A model generated the notes under the pieces. The model was not told the origin of the DNA. It saw only the letters and a program-made list of their open reading frames with translations, and made no database searches. The position numbers and the translations under genes were made by a program. A stretch of 48,989 bases of DNA from a virus (taxonomy: Duplodnaviria > Heunggongvirae > Uroviricota > Caudoviricetes): the IMG/VR virus record IMGVR_UViG_2541047945_000011; one strand, given 5' to 3'. Numbering within the stretch: the first letter of the stretch is position 1; every line of letters begins with the position of its first letter. Of the stretch, positions 1-42,988 are shown piece by piece.

Positions 1-294
1 TCACCCACGATTAACCAACAGCCAGACCAGCAGACACGCCACCACCGGCACAGCAAAATCCATCAGGCTTGCCACATCCCACGCGCGCGGATCAAAACCG
101 CCCCACCACGGCATATTCATACGCTTGCCATGCACGAACATTTCAATCCAGCGATATTCTGCCTGGGTGTGTTCACGCGCAATGAAGAACGTACAACCGG
201 CTATCGCCCCGTAAGCCCAGTTTCCGGTAAAAAGACCAGCCAGTACCTGCACCGCTACGGCACAAAGCGCATGAAGTATCGACGTGATATCCAT
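1..294 (-). CDS. Hypothetical small membrane protein (97 aa), downstream of the tail-fibre genes
   Basis: Complete ORF with ATG at 294 and AAGGA-type RBS about 7 nt upstream; hydrophobic segments (ILHALCAVAVQVLAGLF, FAVPVVACLLVWLLV). Family not recognised. Confidence 0.45.
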   Translation of the reverse strand: MDITSILHALCAVAVQVLAGLFTGNWAYGAIAGCTFFIAREHTQAEYRWIEMFVHGKRMNMPWWGGFDPRAWDVASLMDFAVPVVACLLVWLLVNRG

Positions 295-303
295 CTGCTA
301 TCC

Positions 304-582
304 TTAAAACCACTCCCTGAGCGGGCGCTCTGGTGTAACCACCCACTCACGGAACACGGAATCATCAAATCCATCGTCAAGAAGACGGATATTAACAAAG
401 TACCCTTCGTTTCGCGTGTATTCTGGTTCTCCGTCATCAGGAACATCTGTCTCCCTGAACGTAAAACCAATCTCATCAACCAGAACGGCATTCTGCAGCT
501 CTTCGTCCTCTTCCCAGTTAAGTTTCCTGAGAAATGTCCTGAAATCTGCTTTATCACTGAAACGCAACGTGAAATCTCTCAC
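304..582 (-). CDS. Hypothetical acidic protein (92 aa), translationally coupled to the side tail fibre gene
   Basis: GTG start at 582 overlaps the stf stop (GTGA), with GGGGAGG RBS upstream. Sits where lambda has tfa but does not resemble Tfa. Confidence 0.4.
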   Translation of the reverse strand: MRDFTLRFSDKADFRTFLRKLNWEEDEELQNAVLVDEIGFTFRETDVPDDGEPEYTRNEGYFVNIRLLDDGFDDSVFREWVVTPERPLREWF

Positions 583-2645
583 TCCACAACCTCCCCAAGC
601 TGCGCATCTGTTAGCTCTTTATGCCAGAGACGAAAATTCCTCACATGCCCAAATAAATGGCGTAATCCTGCTGTAGTTTGTCCACCAATGCGAATGGTTG
701 CTGTACTCCGGATATATTCCCATTTGGTTTTAGTTTCGCTGCTTAACTTACCGTTACTGACTACACATGTGGACCGTTCGGACTTTACCCGCATACCAAT
801 AAGCATTTTTTCCAGCCCGGCATTTTCATTTATTCGTCGGTTTGAACCACCAATATCGCAATAAGGAAATCCGTCTGGCCCATCTGCCGAAGATCCGAAG
901 CCAAGAATAATAGCCGCTCCGGTTTGATGACCGCCGGTATCAAAAACACGTGGCGCTGCATTTGGCGTTTTATACCAGTTCTTATGTACCTCACAAAGAA
1001 CCGTAAAAGGAAGATTATAAAGATTATTATTAATTGGAACTGTAACTATATCGCTTGCGCGGGTAGCCGCCGTCGTTCCTGAGATAATAAAAGATGATGC
1101 ACACGAACCATCCTCAACCTGAGGGGTGGCCAGATAAATATAGTCTCCAGATACGGTTGCTCCGCCCTGATTAGGAGAATACTGTATCTGAGATCCTATT
1201 TTTAACTCATCATCAATTGCCAGGATTGTTGCCTCTGCAAAAATCCATCCGGTAGCTTCGTCCTTTCTGACTCTCGCTGTAATCCCTGAGGCCGCGCCAC
1301 CTGTCATATTAATTTCAAGCGTTTGTGTATCAATATATGCATCACCAAGAAAAGTTGTTGCACTACCGTCATATTTATCAAAGCGGATACGCAACCTTAC
1401 CTGTCGTTCTGTTTTAAAACGACATGAGGTTGTCACGTACTTGTTATCGCCTGAAACATCAACTGACTTTGTAGCAGCAATTGATGCCATATTAATGGCT
1501 GACGTTTGCCCAATCAGAGAATCGTTACAAACAAACTTTCCATAAGTAAAACCAAAACTATCAGTTCCAACCTCAGCGACATTCATATTTGCAGATTTAC
1601 CCCAAGAAGCTGGAGTTGCTGAATTCAACATGTAGTTGGTTCGCTGACCTTCAATCAATAAACCTTCTTTTTCAAATCGTGGCTCATTAATTTCCGCCGT
1701 TTTCAGTTCGCCAGATTTGTTGATATATGTTGCCGTTGATGCGCGACTGAAATTAACCTGTTTATCACTGGCAACCTGAACCACATTATCACCAATCTTC
1801 ACTTTTTTATAACCCGGAGAATAGCCCGTAATCATATCCAGCGAATCATTAAAGGGTATCCACACATCCGGCAGCGGCTGTAAAACATATCTGTACGGCT
1901 CTGCTGTCTGGTTTGCGTATTCTCTGGCAGCATCTTCACTTGCTTTTGCTGCCGTCTGGCTTGCTGCCGATGCTTTCGCCGAGTTCGCCGCCGCTGTTTC
2001 GCTCACCTTTGCGTTGGCTTCACTGTCTTTGGCATTCGTCTCACTGGTTTTCGCTGCCGTCTGGCTGGATTTTGCGTTTTTTTCGCTGGCCTTTGTGGCT
2101 GTCTCGCTATTTTTCGCGTTGGTTTCTGATTTTTTGGCTGCTGTCGCGGAGTTTGCCGATGCAGTCTGCGAGGCCGCTGCCGCCTGTGCGCTGTTAGCTG
2201 CATTCGTTTCTGAGGTTTTCGCCGCATTCTTCGATGAGGCTGCTGCCGTTTCGGATTTCTTTGCCGCCGCTGCACTCTGTGATGACGCTCCGGCATGACG
2301 TGCCACTTCATTCACCATCAGCTCAAAACGGCGCAGTGCCTCCGGACGGGCATCATCCTCCGTCATGGCACCGAGAAAATCATTCAGCGTACCTGGTCTG
2401 GAACCTTCATAGACGGTAATGGTTCCGGCATGTGAAGGCGGAAAACCTTCAACCAGCAGGGTGACGCTGTACTGGCCATACTCAACATCCATGCTATAAC
2501 GCCCGGCTTCATCCGGATTTTCAGAGGCCACCGTGTTCACCAGTACCGTGGTGCTGTTACGCTTTGCCTTCAGTTGAATAGTGCAGTTCTGTATTGGTTT
2601 TCCCGCACCATCTTTCAGCACACCTGAGATTTTTACTGCTGCCAT
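579..2645 (-). CDS. stf: Side tail fibre protein (Stf-like)
   Basis: N-terminus MAAVKISGVLKDGAGKPIQNCTIQLKAKRNSTTV...FPPSHAGTITVYE matches lambda Stf from memory; long Ala/Ser/Thr/Lys low-complexity repeat (KxSETNAxNS); distinct C-terminal domain ending HVRNFRLWHKELTDAQL. ATG at 2645 chosen over the upstream GTG. Confidence 0.85.
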   Translation of the reverse strand: MAAVKISGVLKDGAGKPIQNCTIQLKAKRNSTTVLVNTVASENPDEAGRYSMDVEYGQYSVTLLVEGFPPSHAGTITVYEGSRPGTLNDFLGAMTEDDARPEALRRFELMVNEVARHAGASSQSAAAAKKSETAAASSKNAAKTSETNAANSAQAAAASQTASANSATAAKKSETNAKNSETATKASEKNAKSSQTAAKTSETNAKDSEANAKVSETAAANSAKASAASQTAAKASEDAAREYANQTAEPYRYVLQPLPDVWIPFNDSLDMITGYSPGYKKVKIGDNVVQVASDKQVNFSRASTATYINKSGELKTAEINEPRFEKEGLLIEGQRTNYMLNSATPASWGKSANMNVAEVGTDSFGFTYGKFVCNDSLIGQTSAINMASIAATKSVDVSGDNKYVTTSCRFKTERQVRLRIRFDKYDGSATTFLGDAYIDTQTLEINMTGGAASGITARVRKDEATGWIFAEATILAIDDELKIGSQIQYSPNQGGATVSGDYIYLATPQVEDGSCASSFIISGTTAATRASDIVTVPINNNLYNLPFTVLCEVHKNWYKTPNAAPRVFDTGGHQTGAAIILGFGSSADGPDGFPYCDIGGSNRRINENAGLEKMLIGMRVKSERSTCVVSNGKLSSETKTKWEYIRSTATIRIGGQTTAGLRHLFGHVRNFRLWHKELTDAQLGEVVE

Positions 2646-2662
2646 ATCCACTCCACAAAAAA

Positions 2663-2682
2663 GCCCGCCTGAACCGGCGGGC
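2663..2682 (-). terminator. Putative intrinsic terminator between lom and stf
   Basis: Minus-strand stem GCCCGCC / GGCGGGC with 6-nt loop, followed by a T-run (TTTTTTGTGG) on the minus strand. Confidence 0.45.
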
Positions 2683-2709
2683 TGTCATAACACTGTGTTA
2701 CCTGGCTAA

Positions 2710-3309
2710 TCAGAACTTATAACCGACACCCACGATGAAACCGTCAGTGCGCCAGTCACCACTACCGGAGCCTTCATAAGCAATATCAATGGCCACGGAT
2801 TCGGTCGGGTTAAACTGCACGCCAGCCCCCCACGCCAGAGACGTGTTGCTGTGGCGACCGTCATCACTTCCGGTCAGCACATCGTGCGTTTTCCCCTTGT
2901 TGTCAGTTACGCGGAGATAATCCCCGGAGAAAGTCGACACACGGCTGTAAGCCACACCCACCATCGCATACGCGCTGAACCATTCATTCACGCGTACAGA
3001 CGGCCCCGCCATCACGCTGAACCAGCGGTTACGCACGGAATCTTCATGCCAGCGGGTATCGCTGTAGTGCGTTTTTTGCTCATCCTCAGCATTGGCATAA
3101 CTGAAGGACGTAATCAGCCCCAGCGCGTCCGTAAACTCATAACGGTATTTCACGTTAATCCCGTTCAGATTATCGCTGCCGGGAGCGTTCGTACGGGCAT
3201 GAAGATACCCCGCGCTCAGTGTGGACTGATGTTCAGACGCCCATGCAGGCGCACCGGATACGGACAGACAGATGGCTGCGGACAAAATGGCTGCACATAA
3301 TTTACGCAT
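2710..3309 (-). CDS. lom: Outer membrane protein Lom (Ail/Lom family)
   Basis: 199 aa with signal peptide MRKLCAAILSAAICLSVSGAPAWA and beta-barrel signature ending ...GFIVGVGYKF; lambda position directly after J. Confidence 0.9.
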   Translation of the reverse strand: MRKLCAAILSAAICLSVSGAPAWASEHQSTLSAGYLHARTNAPGSDNLNGINVKYRYEFTDALGLITSFSYANAEDEQKTHYSDTRWHEDSVRNRWFSVMAGPSVRVNEWFSAYAMVGVAYSRVSTFSGDYLRVTDNKGKTHDVLTGSDDGRHSNTSLAWGAGVQFNPTESVAIDIAYEGSGSGDWRTDGFIVGVGYKF

Positions 3310-3333
3310 AATTACCTCTCGCTTTTCTGCAAT

Positions 3334-3358
3334 AAAAAAGGCGCCATTTCTGGCGCCC
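3334..3358 (-). terminator. Putative intrinsic terminator downstream of J
   Basis: Minus-strand stem GGCGCC...GGCGCC followed by TTTTTTATTG. Confidence 0.45.
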
Positions 3359-3376
3359 GTATATGGGTTATAAAAT

Positions 3377-6300
3377 TCAGCTAATCGTGATGCCTGCAGT
3401 GGCTTTCTTCATCACAACAACCAGCAAATCGCTGATACTTGCTGTGGGATACCAGCCATTTACCCACCATGCTGATACAGAAAACTCCAGCGTCATGTCG
3501 CCGCGACCAGCAGGCATATCAATAACACCACTGTAAACCAGCGTATTATCCATCGCGGTACGGTTATAAATTTCAGCACCGTTTTTCTTCACTATCAGGC
3601 GGCATGACGAATAAGTATCGCTGTTCTCCCGCTCATGTCTGGCACCGCTGAAAGCCACCGCCGGAATAACAATCTGCCGGTTAAACGGCTGATCGTCATA
3701 AACCCTGACGGTAATGGTTCCTGATGGCCAACGCTTCGGTGCACGGGAGTCACGAGGGAAAGCCTTACCCACTGTTTTAACGAGATCGCCTTCAATCTGG
3801 TTTGCAGACAGTTTCCCTCTGATGACACAGTTCTTGTTAATGGTGACATTATTGAGCGTGCCGGTATTCGCCGTGATGGCTCCACTGATATCCGCATTGC
3901 GGGCTGTCAGCCTGCCATCCGGCGTCAGGGAAAACGTCGGAGGATTGCCGGATGACGTGATGCTCACCGCAAACAGTCGCTTCAGGAACACGTCGTTCAT
4001 GAACAGCTGATTCCCCTGCGCCACAAACAGCGGCGTGGTGTTGCCGTTCTCCGGGGTAATCATCGCAATGCGATCGGCCTGCAGCAGAATGTTACTCAGG
4101 GTCTGACCATCAACATCCTCAATCCCCGCGCCAATCCCGGCCACATAGGGAATACCGTTTTTTGTTTTCTGCACCTTCAGCATATACATGGCATTCAGCT
4201 CATTGCGCGTGTCTGACTGAACCCGCTGGATTTGCTGTATGGTCACGGCCTGGTCACCCAGCTTTTTATCCGTGGTCGAGGTAATTTCACTCCCTTTTTT
4301 ATCCACGTACTGGCGGACCTGTGCTATCTGTCGGGCGTTTTCTGACTGCCCCTGGCTGACAGTCTGTGAGATTTCACTGCTCACCCGGTCCACTTTCTGG
4401 CTCACCTGCGCGATGGCCAGTGTCTGGTCCTCATTCTTTTTCGCAACCAGCTGCGTGAGGCTGTTTTCCGCCTTCCCGATTTTCCGGGTCACTTCTGCGA
4501 TATCCGTGTCCATCCGCTGACGGATATCTTCTTCCAGTTGCGTGACCTCCGTACGCAGCGCTGAAGCATCAATGCGCTCTTTCAGTGCCTGGCCCAGAAG
4601 CGTCTCATCTATCAGCCCCCGGAAAATTTCCAGATACCCTTCACCATCATTGCTGGGCTGCCCGCTGGCTTCCACAAAAGCAGATTTTCCCACCAGGTTG
4701 ACGCTTCGCACGTAAAACCAGAAATCCGTCCCCGGCTTAATCCGGCTCCCCTGGACAGTCCACTGACTGCCGGTCCCCAGATAACGGGCAGATTTTTCCA
4801 CCTGTGCTGTGTTCGTGATGCGTTTTTCTGAGAACCAGAATTCAAACTGCACCGTCGGGTCATACACCGCCAGCACCGGTACCGCCGTTATCTGAAAATA
4901 CCCCGGCGTCAGCTCAATGGTGGCGGGTTTTGCAGGCGCGTTAATCCGGAAGGTGGTGGTCGCAGGTTCGCCCTGCTGGCCGTAGCTGTTAATGGCCCGC
5001 ACCGTCAGGGTGTATTCCCCCAGCGGCAGACCACTGAAACGGTGCTCCGTGTCTGCGGTGATGGCGGTGCTCACCAGACGGCTGTCTTCTCCGCTTCCGC
5101 TGGTCAGACGCAGACTGAAGCGCACCCCCTTCACCACCCGCGGCGTGTCCCATTTCGCCTGTGCCAGATACTGACCGTCAGCTGCACTCACCTCCACCGT
5201 CAGGTGCTGCACTGCCGGTGGGATAACGCTGTTCAGGCTGCCTGACTGCGGCTCAAAGCTGGCCCCGTTATCCACAATGGCTTCTTTTTCCGGTACGTGC
5301 TGCACCGCCGTGATGGCAAAGGTGCCGTCCGTGTTTTCCCGGATGGAGACACAGCGAAACAGGCGACGACGCAGTGACGGCAGGGAGAGTCCCCACACCC
5401 CGTATGTCTCCACACCATCAGGCAGGGTACTGACCTGTATCCGGTCCGGCGCGGGGTGTGCGGTAATGGCCACGCTCGCCGGCTTACCGCTGCCGTTAAT
5501 CAGATTAACAGTGGCCGTGCCGGTCTCCGGCAGTGTCACCTCCCGGTCCAGCGTCAGGGTACGGCTGGCGGCATCGATGGACAGGACACGTCCGCCGGTC
5601 ATGGTCCCGGCATAGTCGTTATCACAGATTTCAATGATGTCACCGGGTGTGTGCCGCAGCCCCTGAGACCCGAGCGTGAAATCCACCGTCTGCGTTTCCA
5701 GCAGTTCGGTCTTTATCACCCACAGTCCGGCACGGTGGGCCTGACCGCGGCTGGTACAGCCGAACGCGTCCATCTTCAGCAGGTTGCGTCCGTAGCGCAG
5801 TATGGCTTCCGGGTCTTCCACCAGTTCCGTGGAGGTCTGCCAGCCGTTCTGCGGGTCGGTGTAATTCACCTCCACCGCCGTGTGCCGGTCCTTCAGGGCA
5901 CTGAAGCTGTAGCGGAACCCCACGCCGTTATCATCCACCACCACATCGCTGTTGGTGTACGGCCACACCACATCCGACGGACGGTCCTGAACGAACGTCA
6001 GCGTCTGGCCGTTCCATACCGGCATACAGCGCATCGCCGAGCAGAAATCACTGAGAACGTCCCACGCCTTACGCTGTTGTGCCAGGTACGCATTAAAGGT
6101 CATCCGCGGCTCGGTCCCCCCGAAACCATCCGGGACCGTCTGGTCGCAGTACTGCCCGATGGCATACAGCGCCCACTTGTCCACATCCGCCGCCCCCAGA
6201 CGTTTTCCCATGCCGTAGCGCGGGTGAGTCAGCATGTCCCACAGACACCAGGCCGGGTTGTTGCTGTATGCCGGTTTCAGGCTGCCGTCCCAGATACCAC

Positions 6301-7069
6301 TGTACGTGCGTTTTTCCGGGTCATAGTTTGACGGCACCTGGATGATGCGACCGCGGATATGGTAGTTCACCGTCATCTGCTGGCCGCCGAACTGCTCCGC
6401 ATCCACCTGCAGCCCCACAATGGCCGTGTTCGGGTAGCACTGTTTCACATCGATGATTTCGGTGTATGACGACCACAGCGTCTTATTCTGCAGCTGGTCC
6501 GTGGTGCTGTCCGCCGTCTCCCTGACCATCCGGATGTTAAAGGGCCGGGGAGGCAGATTATCCAGAATCACCGAGGCCAGGAACTGTGAGGTGGTCTTGC
6601 CGTTAATGGTGACGTCCTTTTCTGTCACCCAGTTACCGTTACGCTGTAACTGAATCAGCAGGCGGACGGATGCCGGGTTACGGTCACCCTTTGAGGTGGT
6701 CTCCACCAGTGACTGCACCCCGAAGGTAACCCGCAGGCGGTCAATGTTCGCGGACGTAATGGTGCGCGTCACCGGTTTTGCCTTCGTCACTTCCACGCCC
6801 AGTCCGGTTTCAGCTCCGGAGGACTCAAAGCCTTCCGGTGGTGTCTGCTCCTGCTCCCCGGCACGCCAGACCGCGGTCACACCGTGTATCACGGGATTAC
6901 CGTCCGTGTCCGTCAGCGGGGTTTTGTTCACCAGGATACTCTGCAGTCCCTTCACCGGGCCTTCTATCGGTCCCTCACCAATCGCATCAATCACACTCAT
7001 CATCTGCGTGGATTTGAGATTATCCTTCGCCTCACGAGGCGTGTGTGCCTTACCGCCACCTTTTCCCAT
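3377..7069 (-). CDS. J: Tail tip / host specificity protein J
   Basis: 1230-aa ORF starting [39 protein letters not shown]..., matching lambda J; position after I. Confidence 0.95.
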
Positions 7070-7175
7070 ACAGCCTTCCCCTGAATAAATTAACCGCCAC
7101 TTGCCATTCCGTACAGAAGTCGGATATCCTTCGCCCGAAAAGCATGAAACACATTTCTGCCATGCTAAAGAGAAA

Positions 7176-7209
7176 CCCCGGTATCAGCAGATACCGGGGT
7201 TTTCTTTCA
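7176..7209 (+). terminator. Hairpin plus T-run in the I-J intergenic region
   Basis: CCCCGGTAT-cagcag-ATACCGGGG followed by TTTTCTTTC. Confidence 0.35.
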
Positions 7210-7274
7210 TGCCCACCGATAATCCTGTTGGTTAAAACCGGTAATGGCATAAAAATTCTGAATATCTTCACATT

Positions 7275-7302
7275 TTCACAAACTGACTGTGGCGCGTATA
7301 AT
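7275..7302 (+). promoter_or_regulatory. Sigma70-like promoter (TTCACA-16 nt-TATAAT) in the I-J intergenic region, antisense to late transcription
   Basis: -35 TTCACA at 7275-7280 and -10 TATAAT at 7297-7302. Confidence 0.3.
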
Positions 7303-7367
7303 TTCTCTGCGTTAATTTTTTTGTCGTGATATAAGAATAATTCCTTACACTTAATCTTCGTAACTCT

Positions 7368-7408
7368 CCCGCAGTTCCTGTCCGCGATCACTGCGGGATT
7401 TTTTTATT
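7368..7408 (+). terminator. Hairpin plus T-run about 100 nt downstream of the antisense promoter
   Basis: CCCGCAGT...ACTGCGGG followed by ATTTTTTTATTCTTTTT. Confidence 0.35.
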
Positions 7409-7412
7409 CTTT

Positions 7413-8093
7413 TTACCCCTGCCGCCCGATAACCACGACCTTTCCGCCCCCGCCTTCATCACGGGTGCTGATGTCCTGGGATATACGGCGGGAGCCAACC
7501 AGCATTTCCCCGTAAGGCACCGGCATCGGGTTCCCCTGGGCAATCATGTTATCCAGCGAGGAAAAGTACGTGTTCTGTCTGCCGTTATCCGTTACGCGGT
7601 AATCCGGTGTTTTTGCCTTCGGGGCCAGCATCTGGGCCACACCGCCCAGTATCATGCTGGCCCCCAGTGAAAACAGCATCGTGGTGGCAGAAAAACCACC
7701 GGCTGCCAGGGCTGAACCCCATAACGCCATCGAGGCACCGGCCGTGAAGAAAGAGCCCACGATGGCTGCCGCCCCCAGCACAATCTGCAGTCCGCCCTTT
7801 CCGGCTCCGGCCAGTCGCGGCACAATGTGGATGACCGTTCCCTCACCCAGCTGTTCGTGAAGACGGGCGTACACCGCCTCCGGTGCCGTGTCATCACCGG
7901 CAATACGTATCTGGTACCAGCCTTCGTTCATCTGACGGCGAAAGCCCGGCACCTGTAACGACAGGGCACGGATGGCTTCCGCTGCCGTGTTCACATACAG
8001 GCTGAGGCGGCGGCCAAATCGTTGCAAATCCCCGTGAAGGCAGATGCGTGCCAGTGGCGGTGACGCCAGACAGAATGCGTTCGTCGTTGCCAT
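7413..8093 (-). CDS. I: Tail assembly protein I
   Basis: 226 aa; ...ARICLHGDLQRFGRR...GAAAIVGSFFTAGA...NTYFSSLDNMIAQGNPMPVPYGEMLVGSR matches lambda I. Confidence 0.9.
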   Translation of the reverse strand: MATTNAFCLASPPLARICLHGDLQRFGRRLSLYVNTAAEAIRALSLQVPGFRRQMNEGWYQIRIAGDDTAPEAVYARLHEQLGEGTVIHIVPRLAGAGKGGLQIVLGAAAIVGSFFTAGASMALWGSALAAGGFSATTMLFSLGASMILGGVAQMLAPKAKTPDYRVTDNGRQNTYFSSLDNMIAQGNPMPVPYGEMLVGSRRISQDISTRDEGGGGKVVVIGRQG

Positions 8094-15303: not shown

Positions 15304-15679
15304 ATTCAGCCGTTCCGTGCTGTATCATGGCCGTTGCCAGTGATGATGGCACCAGAACACGCATACCCCGGTACGTCAGTTCAACGGGACGGCCTGTCTC
15401 CGGGCAATACCCCATTACTTGCAGGCACTTCCGTACCCGGACGGCTTTAACATCATCCGGAGCATCCGTGTTGTTCAACTGCTCACCATCGTCTGTGTGA
15501 TTTTGATCAGCCCCGCTCTCATCAGAGTGCATAATGCCCTCCGGGGAAACAGCAAGCTCCTCTTCCCACTCAGACACACGTTGAGCAATATCCGCAGCAC
15601 TCCCCGACATATCCGCCTCGCGCCCCAGCAGGCCAGCCAGTTGACGAAGACGATTCAGATTTTCTTCTTTTGTTGCCAT
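15296..15679 (-). CDS. FI: DNA packaging protein FI
   Basis: ATG at 15679 preceded by AGGAGG; MATKEENLNRLRQLAGLL...; lambda FI position. The track's longer ORF start at 15727 was rejected. Confidence 0.8.
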   Translation of the reverse strand: MATKEENLNRLRQLAGLLGREADMSGSAADIAQRVSEWEEELAVSPEGIMHSDESGADQNHTDDGEQLNNTDAPDDVKAVRVRKCLQVMGYCPETGRPVELTYRGMRVLVPSSLATAMIQHGTAEYA

Positions 15680-42619: not shown

Positions 42620-42677
42620 TTTCTGGTGACTTTTGGCGGTATCAGTTCTACTCCGTGACTGCTCTGCCGCCCTTTTT
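42620..42677 (+). ncRNA. dicF: DicF small RNA
   Basis: TTTCTGGTGACTTTTGGCGGTATCAGTTCTACTCCGTGACTGCTCTGCCGCCCTTTTT matches Qin DicF from memory; sits between the ydfA-like genes and dicB as in Qin. Confidence 0.8.
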
Positions 42678-42965
42678 AAAGTGAATTTTGTGATGCGGTG
42701 AATGCGGCTCAGCGCACGCGGAACAGTTAAAACAAGCGGTCTTTTACGGGCGTAACGGGAATGCTCTGTATCCGACGTTAATTGTTAACTGGTTAACGTC
42801 ACCTGGAGGCACCAGGCACCGCATCAACAAAGTTCACTTCGGTGATGAAAGGTAGAGAAAATGTTGAATGTAGCTATTGAAAACCAGAACGGGTGGAATT
42901 ATAGTGCACCTGCACCTCATAAAACGGGTGCCGGGCGTGGAAACCCGAAATCATTCACGGCGCAT

Positions 42966-42988
42966 AACCGCGCTCAGGCGGTTTTTTT
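42966..42988 (+). terminator. Putative intrinsic terminator in the leader upstream of rha
   Basis: AACCGC-gctcag-GCGGTT followed by TTTTTTTA. Confidence 0.4.

Follow-up and report, generated by a model that had tools for sequence, protein, structure and literature searches.

Why should 343 bp lie between the tail genes I and J of a prophage when phage lambda has 60 bp at the same place, and does this extra DNA encode an RNA of its own? The window (the whole stretch of DNA analysed, 48,989 nucleotides of IMG/VR record IMGVR_UViG_2541047945_000011) carries both genes on its minus strand, so that the plus strand is antisense to the late tail operon:

3377-7069, minus strand: J, tail tip/host specificity protein, 1230 aa, with gpJ Pfam domains; the downstream late-operon neighbour of the gap
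7413-8093, minus strand: I, tail assembly protein, 226 aa (PF06805, Lambda_tail_I); the upstream neighbour

At 226 aa the I ORF shares about 100 nt (7991-8093) with the end of the K-like ORF that precedes it, and other records annotate the I protein as 192-193 aa (579-582 bp), which makes the true start of I in the window uncertain. The stop codon (7413-7415) is the end that borders the gap, which runs from 7070 to 7412. In lambda, I ends at 15444 and J starts at 15505. The statement in the original prediction that the two genes are adjacent in lambda is thus approximately right, 60 bp still separating them, and relative to lambda the gap has been expanded by ~280 bp of inserted DNA. BLAST finds the gap as a whole, free of any annotation, in 1662 of the 5426 complete E. 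coli genomes, and PPompW-type, Stx1a, Stx2c and other lambdoid phages have it too; the genome of 'FDA strain Seattle 1946' and SK1144 are among the carriers of an identical gap. Its right part (7249-7412) is more widely shared than its left part.

The original prediction had placed in the gap a near-consensus σ70 promoter on the plus strand, a hairpin with a T-run ~100 nt past it and another hairpin with a T-run upstream. All three are present, the last of them in a separate cassette. From left to right the gap contains:

7070-7248, no strand assigned: left cassette ('W module'), ~180 bp separating the J start codon from the region of the pasB promoter
7167-7208, no strand assigned: bidirectional-looking terminator in the W module, a 13-bp G+C-rich stem flanked by AAAGAGAAA and TTTTCTTTC
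7249-7275, plus strand: upstream promoter element, an A/T-rich stretch followed by TCTGA-N6-TCACA at 7257-7272
7275-7302, plus strand: σ70-type sRNA promoter, TTCACA (7275-7280), 16-nt spacer, TATAAT (7297-7302), 11 of 12 consensus positions
7309-7405, plus strand: predicted primary pasB-family transcript, 97 nt, its start inferred from the position of the -10 box
7333-7358, plus strand: conserved core, with AAG-AAU-AAU (ARN) at 7333-7341, UCCUU at 7342-7346 and AAUCUU at 7353-7358
7367-7405, plus strand: intrinsic terminator/Hfq-binding 3' module with a 9-bp stem, a 14-nt loop and U7

The arms of the terminator (7367-7375 and 7390-7398) are 100% complementary and are followed by T7 at 7399-7405, ending 8 nt short of the I stop codon. 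The predicted transcript contains no ATG-initiated ORF. Taken alone, scans for consensus signals are weak evidence: three promoter-like sites in the gap compare with 0.9 ± 0.9 in shuffled sequences, and three terminator-like sites with 1.6 ± 1.3, neither excess being significant.

The identity of the unit comes instead from a known RNA. PasB, the pathogenicity-associated sRNA B, is one of five prophage sRNAs identified by Hfq RIL-seq in EPEC O127:H6 E2348/69 (Pearl Mizrahi et al. 2021, PMC8550237), an 83-nt RNA of prophage PP6 encoded on the minus strand of NC_011601.1 from 1466343 to 1466261 and probed on Northern blots with AATCCCGCAGTGATCGCGGAGCT (PMC8550237, Table S6). It is Northern-validated, its stability is Hfq-dependent, and its abundance is higher in the 'non-activating' growth condition; it accounts for 37 RIL-seq interactions and was ligated to many unlinked core and accessory mRNAs, the RIL-seq study giving no target motif for it (PMC8550237). 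The coordinates 1466261-1466343 lie between I (ending at 1466255) and J (starting at 1466496), both on the plus strand of E2348/69: the same gap, in the same antisense orientation. The reverse complement of the Northern probe, whose target lies in the terminator module, matches positions 7378-7400 of the window at 20 of 23 bases, with no such match expected by chance. Aligning the two gaps leaves the promoter invariant (the hexamers are identical, and the spacer differs at two positions), and likewise the 3' half of the terminator.

The two RNAs are identical at 65 of 89 aligned positions (73%), including the entire 3' 25 nt. They have in common the promoter hexamers and the upstream element, the 3' arm of the terminator, the U7 tail, a core of the form AAyAAyUCCUU...AUCUU, and their length: the published 5' end of PasB maps by alignment to 7322, for an RNA of 84 nt (7322-7405) as against 83 nt. 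The window allele has a different 5' third, a different spacer in front of the terminator and a different terminator loop, and the E2348/69 locus is without the 180-bp left cassette. Intermediate alleles bridge the two types. The promoter predicts a start 14 nt upstream of the published 5' end; RNA processing, a mis-predicted start or a coverage artefact could each account for the offset. Judged by sequence, the unit at 7249-7408 is a pasB homologue, a divergent copy of a known Hfq-dependent prophage sRNA. The proposal of a ~100-nt antisense sRNA within the late tail operon accordingly gains support from homology, from the probe match and from the identity of gap and strand; its promoter and terminator stand, while the expected mature size must be brought down to the ~83-85 nt of the prototype. 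The suggested comparison of I-J junctions in related prophages bears it out: a PasB-like unit recurs there, on the same antisense strand, with a terminator (9-bp stem plus U7 in the window) abutting the 3' end of I. By analogy with its documented homologue, such an RNA would be an Hfq-bound sRNA with many partners, going beyond antisense action in cis. Rfam holds no model for the PasB family, and a permissive scan of the gap against it gave only sub-threshold chance matches.

A second group of published RNAs appears to belong to the same family. EcOnc22, EcOnc23 and EcOnc24 are Hfq-crosslinked orphan sRNAs of E. coli O157:H7 Sakai (Tree et al. 2014, PMC4104026, Table S2). EcOnc22 is located in Sp15 at 2902714-2902774 on the plus strand, runs at ~85 nt on Northern blots and is destabilised in Δhfq (PMC4104026); EcOnc23 is in Sp14 and EcOnc24 in Sp11 (PMC4104026, Table S2). 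Each of the three maps to an I-J gap and runs antisense to the tail genes, and each of these gaps, in Sp15, Sp14 and Sp11, holds a PasB-like unit. The published coordinates are those of NC_002695.1 and their conversion to NC_002695.2 is approximate, depending on one anchor, AgvB, at which NC_002695.1 is shifted by +128 to +146 nt relative to NC_002695.2 (at 1.94 Mb); with this shift applied, the EcOnc crosslink peaks land on the body of the PasB-like RNA. The Sakai alleles resemble the window allele in -10 box, upstream element, core and terminator, and differ in a degenerate -35 hexamer (TCCGGC), a -10 box reading AATAAT, a shorter 5' body and another loop. From these coordinates, through the single AgvB anchor, and from sequence we infer that EcOnc22-24 are members of the PasB family, which would join two literatures: no paper making the connection was found, and neither Pas paper mentions the equivalence. 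As a side observation, J of Sp15 is annotated as two overlapping coding sequences, ECs_2943 and ECs_2944 (219-3691 of the extracted locus), which suggests a frameshifted, defective tail-tip gene beside a still-expressed sRNA gene; the short ECs_2720 of Sp14 suggests a J gene defective in the same way.

How widespread is the family, and what does it conserve? When promoter and RNA together served as the blastn query against 5426 complete E. coli genomes, it turned up at 4746 places in 1847 of them, with up to 9 in one genome. In 633 genome records the best match has an identity of 99% or more to the window, and many of the records listed are of human or clinical origin; in 880 records its identity is 80-90% (prototype-like). 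Species-representative genomes scanned with the promoter word yielded only E. albertii and one contig deposited as Streptomyces flavalbus, and matches in the plasmid database were all from Escherichia, to which the family appears to be confined. The Streptomyces contig (NZ_JBHTEB010000006.1, 3408 bp) carries an E. coli-type pasB unit together with flanking tail-gene sequence and is almost certainly an assembly contaminant.

For a closer comparison, 128 units from IMG/VR and reference loci were reduced to 38 distinct sequences, and eight divergent alleles were added through BLAST or published coordinates. Because the IMG/VR loci were fished with the promoter word, the invariance of the promoter in that set is there by construction; the eight additional alleles, retrieved with neither the promoter nor the upstream-element pattern, provide the valid test. 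All of the divergent variants inspected adjoin gene I, and they lie in the I-J gap wherever J is annotated. The family conserves the upstream element, the -10 box, a 5' leader GCGUUA, the core, the terminator stem and the U-tail; variation is found in the -35 hexamer, in the 5' body, in the spacer preceding the terminator and in the loop of the terminator, which has about 4-16 nt in the 38 variants, and these variable blocks combine differently among alleles, so that the locus is a mosaic. Even variants with as little as ~71-75% identity have kept the upstream element, the -10 box and the terminator. It is this conservation, and the recurrence of the unit in I-J gaps at thousands of places in about a third of the genomes, that takes it beyond chance.

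The consensus fold of the family has the terminator as its only structure. Nearly all of the 38 variants have the same stem core, CCCGCAG/CTGCGGG, one type having the shorter CCCGCA/TGCGGG, and no compensatory covariation was obtained among them; since the stem hardly varies, covariation speaks neither for nor against it. The core at 7333-7358 comprises the only positions of the body that are conserved in the 38 distinct and eight divergent variants alike, and the consensus fold leaves it unpaired. The anatomy, as read from sequence, is that of a typical Hfq-dependent sRNA, whose body is unstructured and bears the seed and whose 3' end is a terminator with a U-tail, and the core is a candidate Hfq distal-face site combined with a putative seed. 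The class II Hfq-dependent sRNAs, such as ChiX and MgrR, likewise combine a terminator with a long U-tail and ARN repeats in an otherwise unstructured body. They have no sequence relationship to the PasB family; the shared design suggests that a PasB-type RNA may bind both the proximal and the distal face of Hfq.

The upstream element is the other part of the locus that stands out. TCTGA-N6-TCACA is centred at about -44.5 relative to the predicted start, and the backbone AATAAAAnTTCTGA-N(about 5, inner T fixed)-TTCACATTT is invariant in the eight divergent variants, among which the -35 hexamer varies; the -10 box is kept across variants as TATAAT, AATAAT, CATAAT or TATCAT. This pattern marks the element as a candidate UP element or activator site. 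It can also be read as TGAA-N4-TTCA, resembling CRP or Cra half-sites, and it is constant even in alleles whose -35 hexamer has degenerated. One may speculate that carbon-source control would fit the reported higher level of PasB in LB than in virulence-activating medium. Class II activation by CRP is rejected: the centre is at -44.5 and not at -41.5, and for this reason the element is kept only as a candidate regulator site. Core and invariant upstream element are concrete targets for mutagenesis.

A recent survey of PasB in Escherichia genomes used a word size of 28 and a query coverage above 75%, and obtained 1158 matches, with a database and a query that differ from those of the present count (Zhu, Shabalina & Storz 2026, bioRxiv 10.64898/2026.05.13.724894). 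Its variants differ by a few nucleotides, PasB-2 for example at position 27, and the seed of PasB is placed just upstream of the terminator (bioRxiv 10.64898/2026.05.13.724894), a location that would fit the AAUCUU block. In the present alignment, PasB-2 is represented by the ASU11-type allele. The longest word that the window RNA shares with PasB is 25 nt; BLAST of one against the other returns nothing at word size 28 and only the 3' 25 nt at word size 11. Given that word length and the coverage threshold, the window allele falls outside the published catalogue. None of the RefSeq and GenBank records inspected annotates it, a full-text literature search for the terminator sequence found no paper, and it is a divergent, widespread and apparently uncatalogued member of the PasB family. 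What was known, then, is the sRNA family, whose RNAs rank with the most abundant partners of Hfq in EPEC; its size, the spread of its alleles and the link to EcOnc22-24 are added here.

These facts suffice for a model. The segment 7249-7408 is very probably an autonomous pasB-family promoter-gene-terminator unit, a 'moron' lying between I and J and directed opposite to the late operon. Host RNA polymerase would start at about 7309, 7 nt after the conserved -10 box and helped by the upstream element, and would stop at the hairpin-U7 at 7405; with termination so close before the I stop codon, I itself would not be transcribed in antisense. The U-tail and terminator, together with the (ARN)3 stretch, would bind Hfq, leaving the unpaired UCCUU...AAUCUU core to pair with target mRNAs. 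Since UCCUU resembles an anti-Shine-Dalgarno sequence, occlusion of ribosome-binding sites would be the most likely action. The homologous RNAs are made in lysogens at ~83-85 nt, require Hfq for stability and have dozens of chromosomal and accessory mRNA partners; for the window allele, expression level, processing and targets are extrapolated from them, by analogy. Its different 5' and central body on the PasB scaffold makes it probable that its target set is not that of prototype PasB. The hairpin of the W module probably insulates the unit in the lysogen from transcription arriving on either strand, and a terminator-like hairpin in front of J would give insulation against non-antiterminated transcription; Q-modified late transcription would be expected to read through the W-module hairpin.

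A bolder extension, which we regard as quite unlikely, would make the pasB locus a modular 'seed-swapping' cassette. The upstream element (possibly carbon-source-responsive and CRP/Cra-like), the -10 box and the terminator/Hfq module would remain constant while recombination shuffled the segments of the body, giving each prophage another repertoire of targets; in addition, since each RNA is complementary to the I-J junctions of related phages too, alleles could pair with the late tail mRNA of a rival prophage, a form of competition between prophages.

The left part of the gap has a history of its own. The W module occurs at 1694 places in 1446 genomes, nearly always with an identity of 99% or more; a genome has one to four copies (median 1), practically never without the pasB unit. 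Both types of pasB body are found beside it; it is present in ASU11 and absent from E2348/69, Sakai and PhiR5_1, which have a ~90-bp cassette in its place. By this distribution it is a separate, exchangeable cassette. The 13-nt arms of its hairpin (7173-7185 and 7190-7202) are 100% complementary and are followed by TTTTCTTTC; the hairpin folds with -26 kcal/mol (z = -6.5 on either strand) and, flanked left and right by A- and T-tracts, might act as a terminator in either direction. A different hairpin belongs to the alternative cassette, CAGGCACC...GGTGCCTG followed by UUGUUUUUG, on the tail-operon strand upstream of J (4425-4475 of the extracted E2348/69 locus, 3735-3770 of the Sakai locus, and also in IMG/VR loci). 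Other loci have CAGGCATC...GATGCCTG, a compensatory change from C-G to T-A, which hints at selection for a terminator or RNA structure on the sense strand immediately before J. In the lambda gap (15445-15504) the sense strand has the hairpin ACCGCC-TGCG-GGCGGT with TTTGTCATTT behind it, shortly before the J ribosome-binding site, in a position analogous to that of the hairpins of both cassettes. With the W module, the alternative cassette and lambda all providing one, a terminator-like hairpin directly upstream of J appears to be a conserved feature of lambdoid I-J junctions.

Might the RNA act chiefly at home, on the late mRNA that it opposes? It would then pair in cis with the I-J message, or with the junctions of co-resident or superinfecting lambdoid phages, and through RNase III cleavage or altered translation of J tune tail-tip output or compete with related phages. 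Complementarity to the intercistronic part of the late mRNA is perfect, the unit lies strictly in the I-J gap and antisense to the operon in every locus inspected, the convergent orientation is unusual for a moron, and with up to 9 related copies in one genome cross-pairing between prophages is conceivable. Yet the transcript from 7309 to 7405 covers spacer only and no coding sequence of I or J, and so lacks the overlap that characterises cis-antisense regulators of the lambda OOP or P22 sar type, even if the polycistronic late mRNA is still complementary to it. The J ribosome-binding site is about 230 nt away and the J start ~240 nt, beyond the left cassette. PasB, moreover, behaves as a trans-acting Hfq sRNA that is ligated to many unlinked mRNAs, and the RNA is found in uninduced lysogens, in which late mRNA is not expected. 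Both the reading as such and the particular route through RNase III or J translation are therefore unlikely.

The original prediction that no ORF of plausible length lies in the gap needs a small correction: an ORF of 113 codons starts from a GTG on the minus strand, 66 aa of it from the first ATG (7250 to 7050). That the gap encodes this 66-aa protein on the tail-operon strand, with the promoter and terminator signals incidental, can draw on the open frame itself and on one GenBank phage record, ASU11, which annotates a 66-aa 'hypothetical protein' at 2981-3181 of the extracted locus, corresponding to about 7050-7250 (minus strand) of the window. Searches of the gap ORFs against Pfam and PHROG gave no match, however, no Shine-Dalgarno sequence is visible before the ATG, and the frame passes through the hairpin with the 13-bp G+C stem and reaches across the J start in another reading frame; on these grounds the ASU11 entry is probably a mis-annotation. 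The ORF belongs to the left cassette and is absent from many pasB loci, E2348/69 included, and RefSeq has no annotation at that place in about 1450 genomes. A small protein is thus a very improbable content of the gap. An IS or MITE remnant, or a non-functional spacer with chance signals, is more improbable still. The consensus scans by themselves would allow it, and the near-identity of the left cassette in almost all of its ~1450 records is what a recently spread element might leave. Against it, the insert, checked for being a known repeat or IS remnant, has neither terminal inverted repeats nor target-site duplications, its copies are few and tied to the pasB unit, its homologues are transcribed and Hfq-bound, and its -10 box, upstream element and terminator persist in the most diverged alleles. 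An IS element or MITE as such is rejected on the missing flanking repeats, the median of one copy per genome and the linkage to pasB.

The preferred reading thus remains a trans-acting, prophage-borne Hfq sRNA moron, and the new data leave this kind of element unchanged. A phage moron, in the concept of Juhala and Hendrix, is an autonomous unit set among phage genes, and the sRNA morons downstream of PR' include AgvB and AsxR. The pasB unit has its own promoter and terminator, is extra DNA relative to lambda (343 against 60 bp) and sits between genes nearly adjacent there; by analogy it would be expressed from the repressed prophage. Unlike a standard moron, it faces against the late operon. 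It is not a member of the AgvB/AsxR family, whose RNAs of 51-60 nt lie downstream of PR' and combine a conserved 3' part GTATCTCATGC...GCCCGAAC with a variable 5' part that mimics an sRNA target: the pasB unit is in the tail-tip region, its sequence differs, it has no CACAACA (the GcvB-mimic motif of AgvB), and Rfam RF02702 and RF02703 (AgvB, AsxR) match neither the gap nor the rest of the window.

The unit has company elsewhere in the prophage. Five further small-RNA genes match Rfam at gathering level, so that the prophage carries at least six, and three tRNA genes are present:

30377-30566, minus strand: STnc100
34878-35049, minus strand: sok, implying a hok/sok-type toxin-antitoxin locus
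42621-42672, plus strand: DicF
42912-42988, plus strand: IsrK, adjoining C4
43013-43100, plus strand: C4-type antisense RNA, adjoining IsrK
31265-31339, minus strand: tRNA-Arg(tct), inside the prophage
31440-31515, minus strand: tRNA-Met(cat), inside the prophage
48009-48098, minus strand: tRNA-Ser(cga), near the end of the window

The last of these, tRNA-Ser(cga), may be the integration site.
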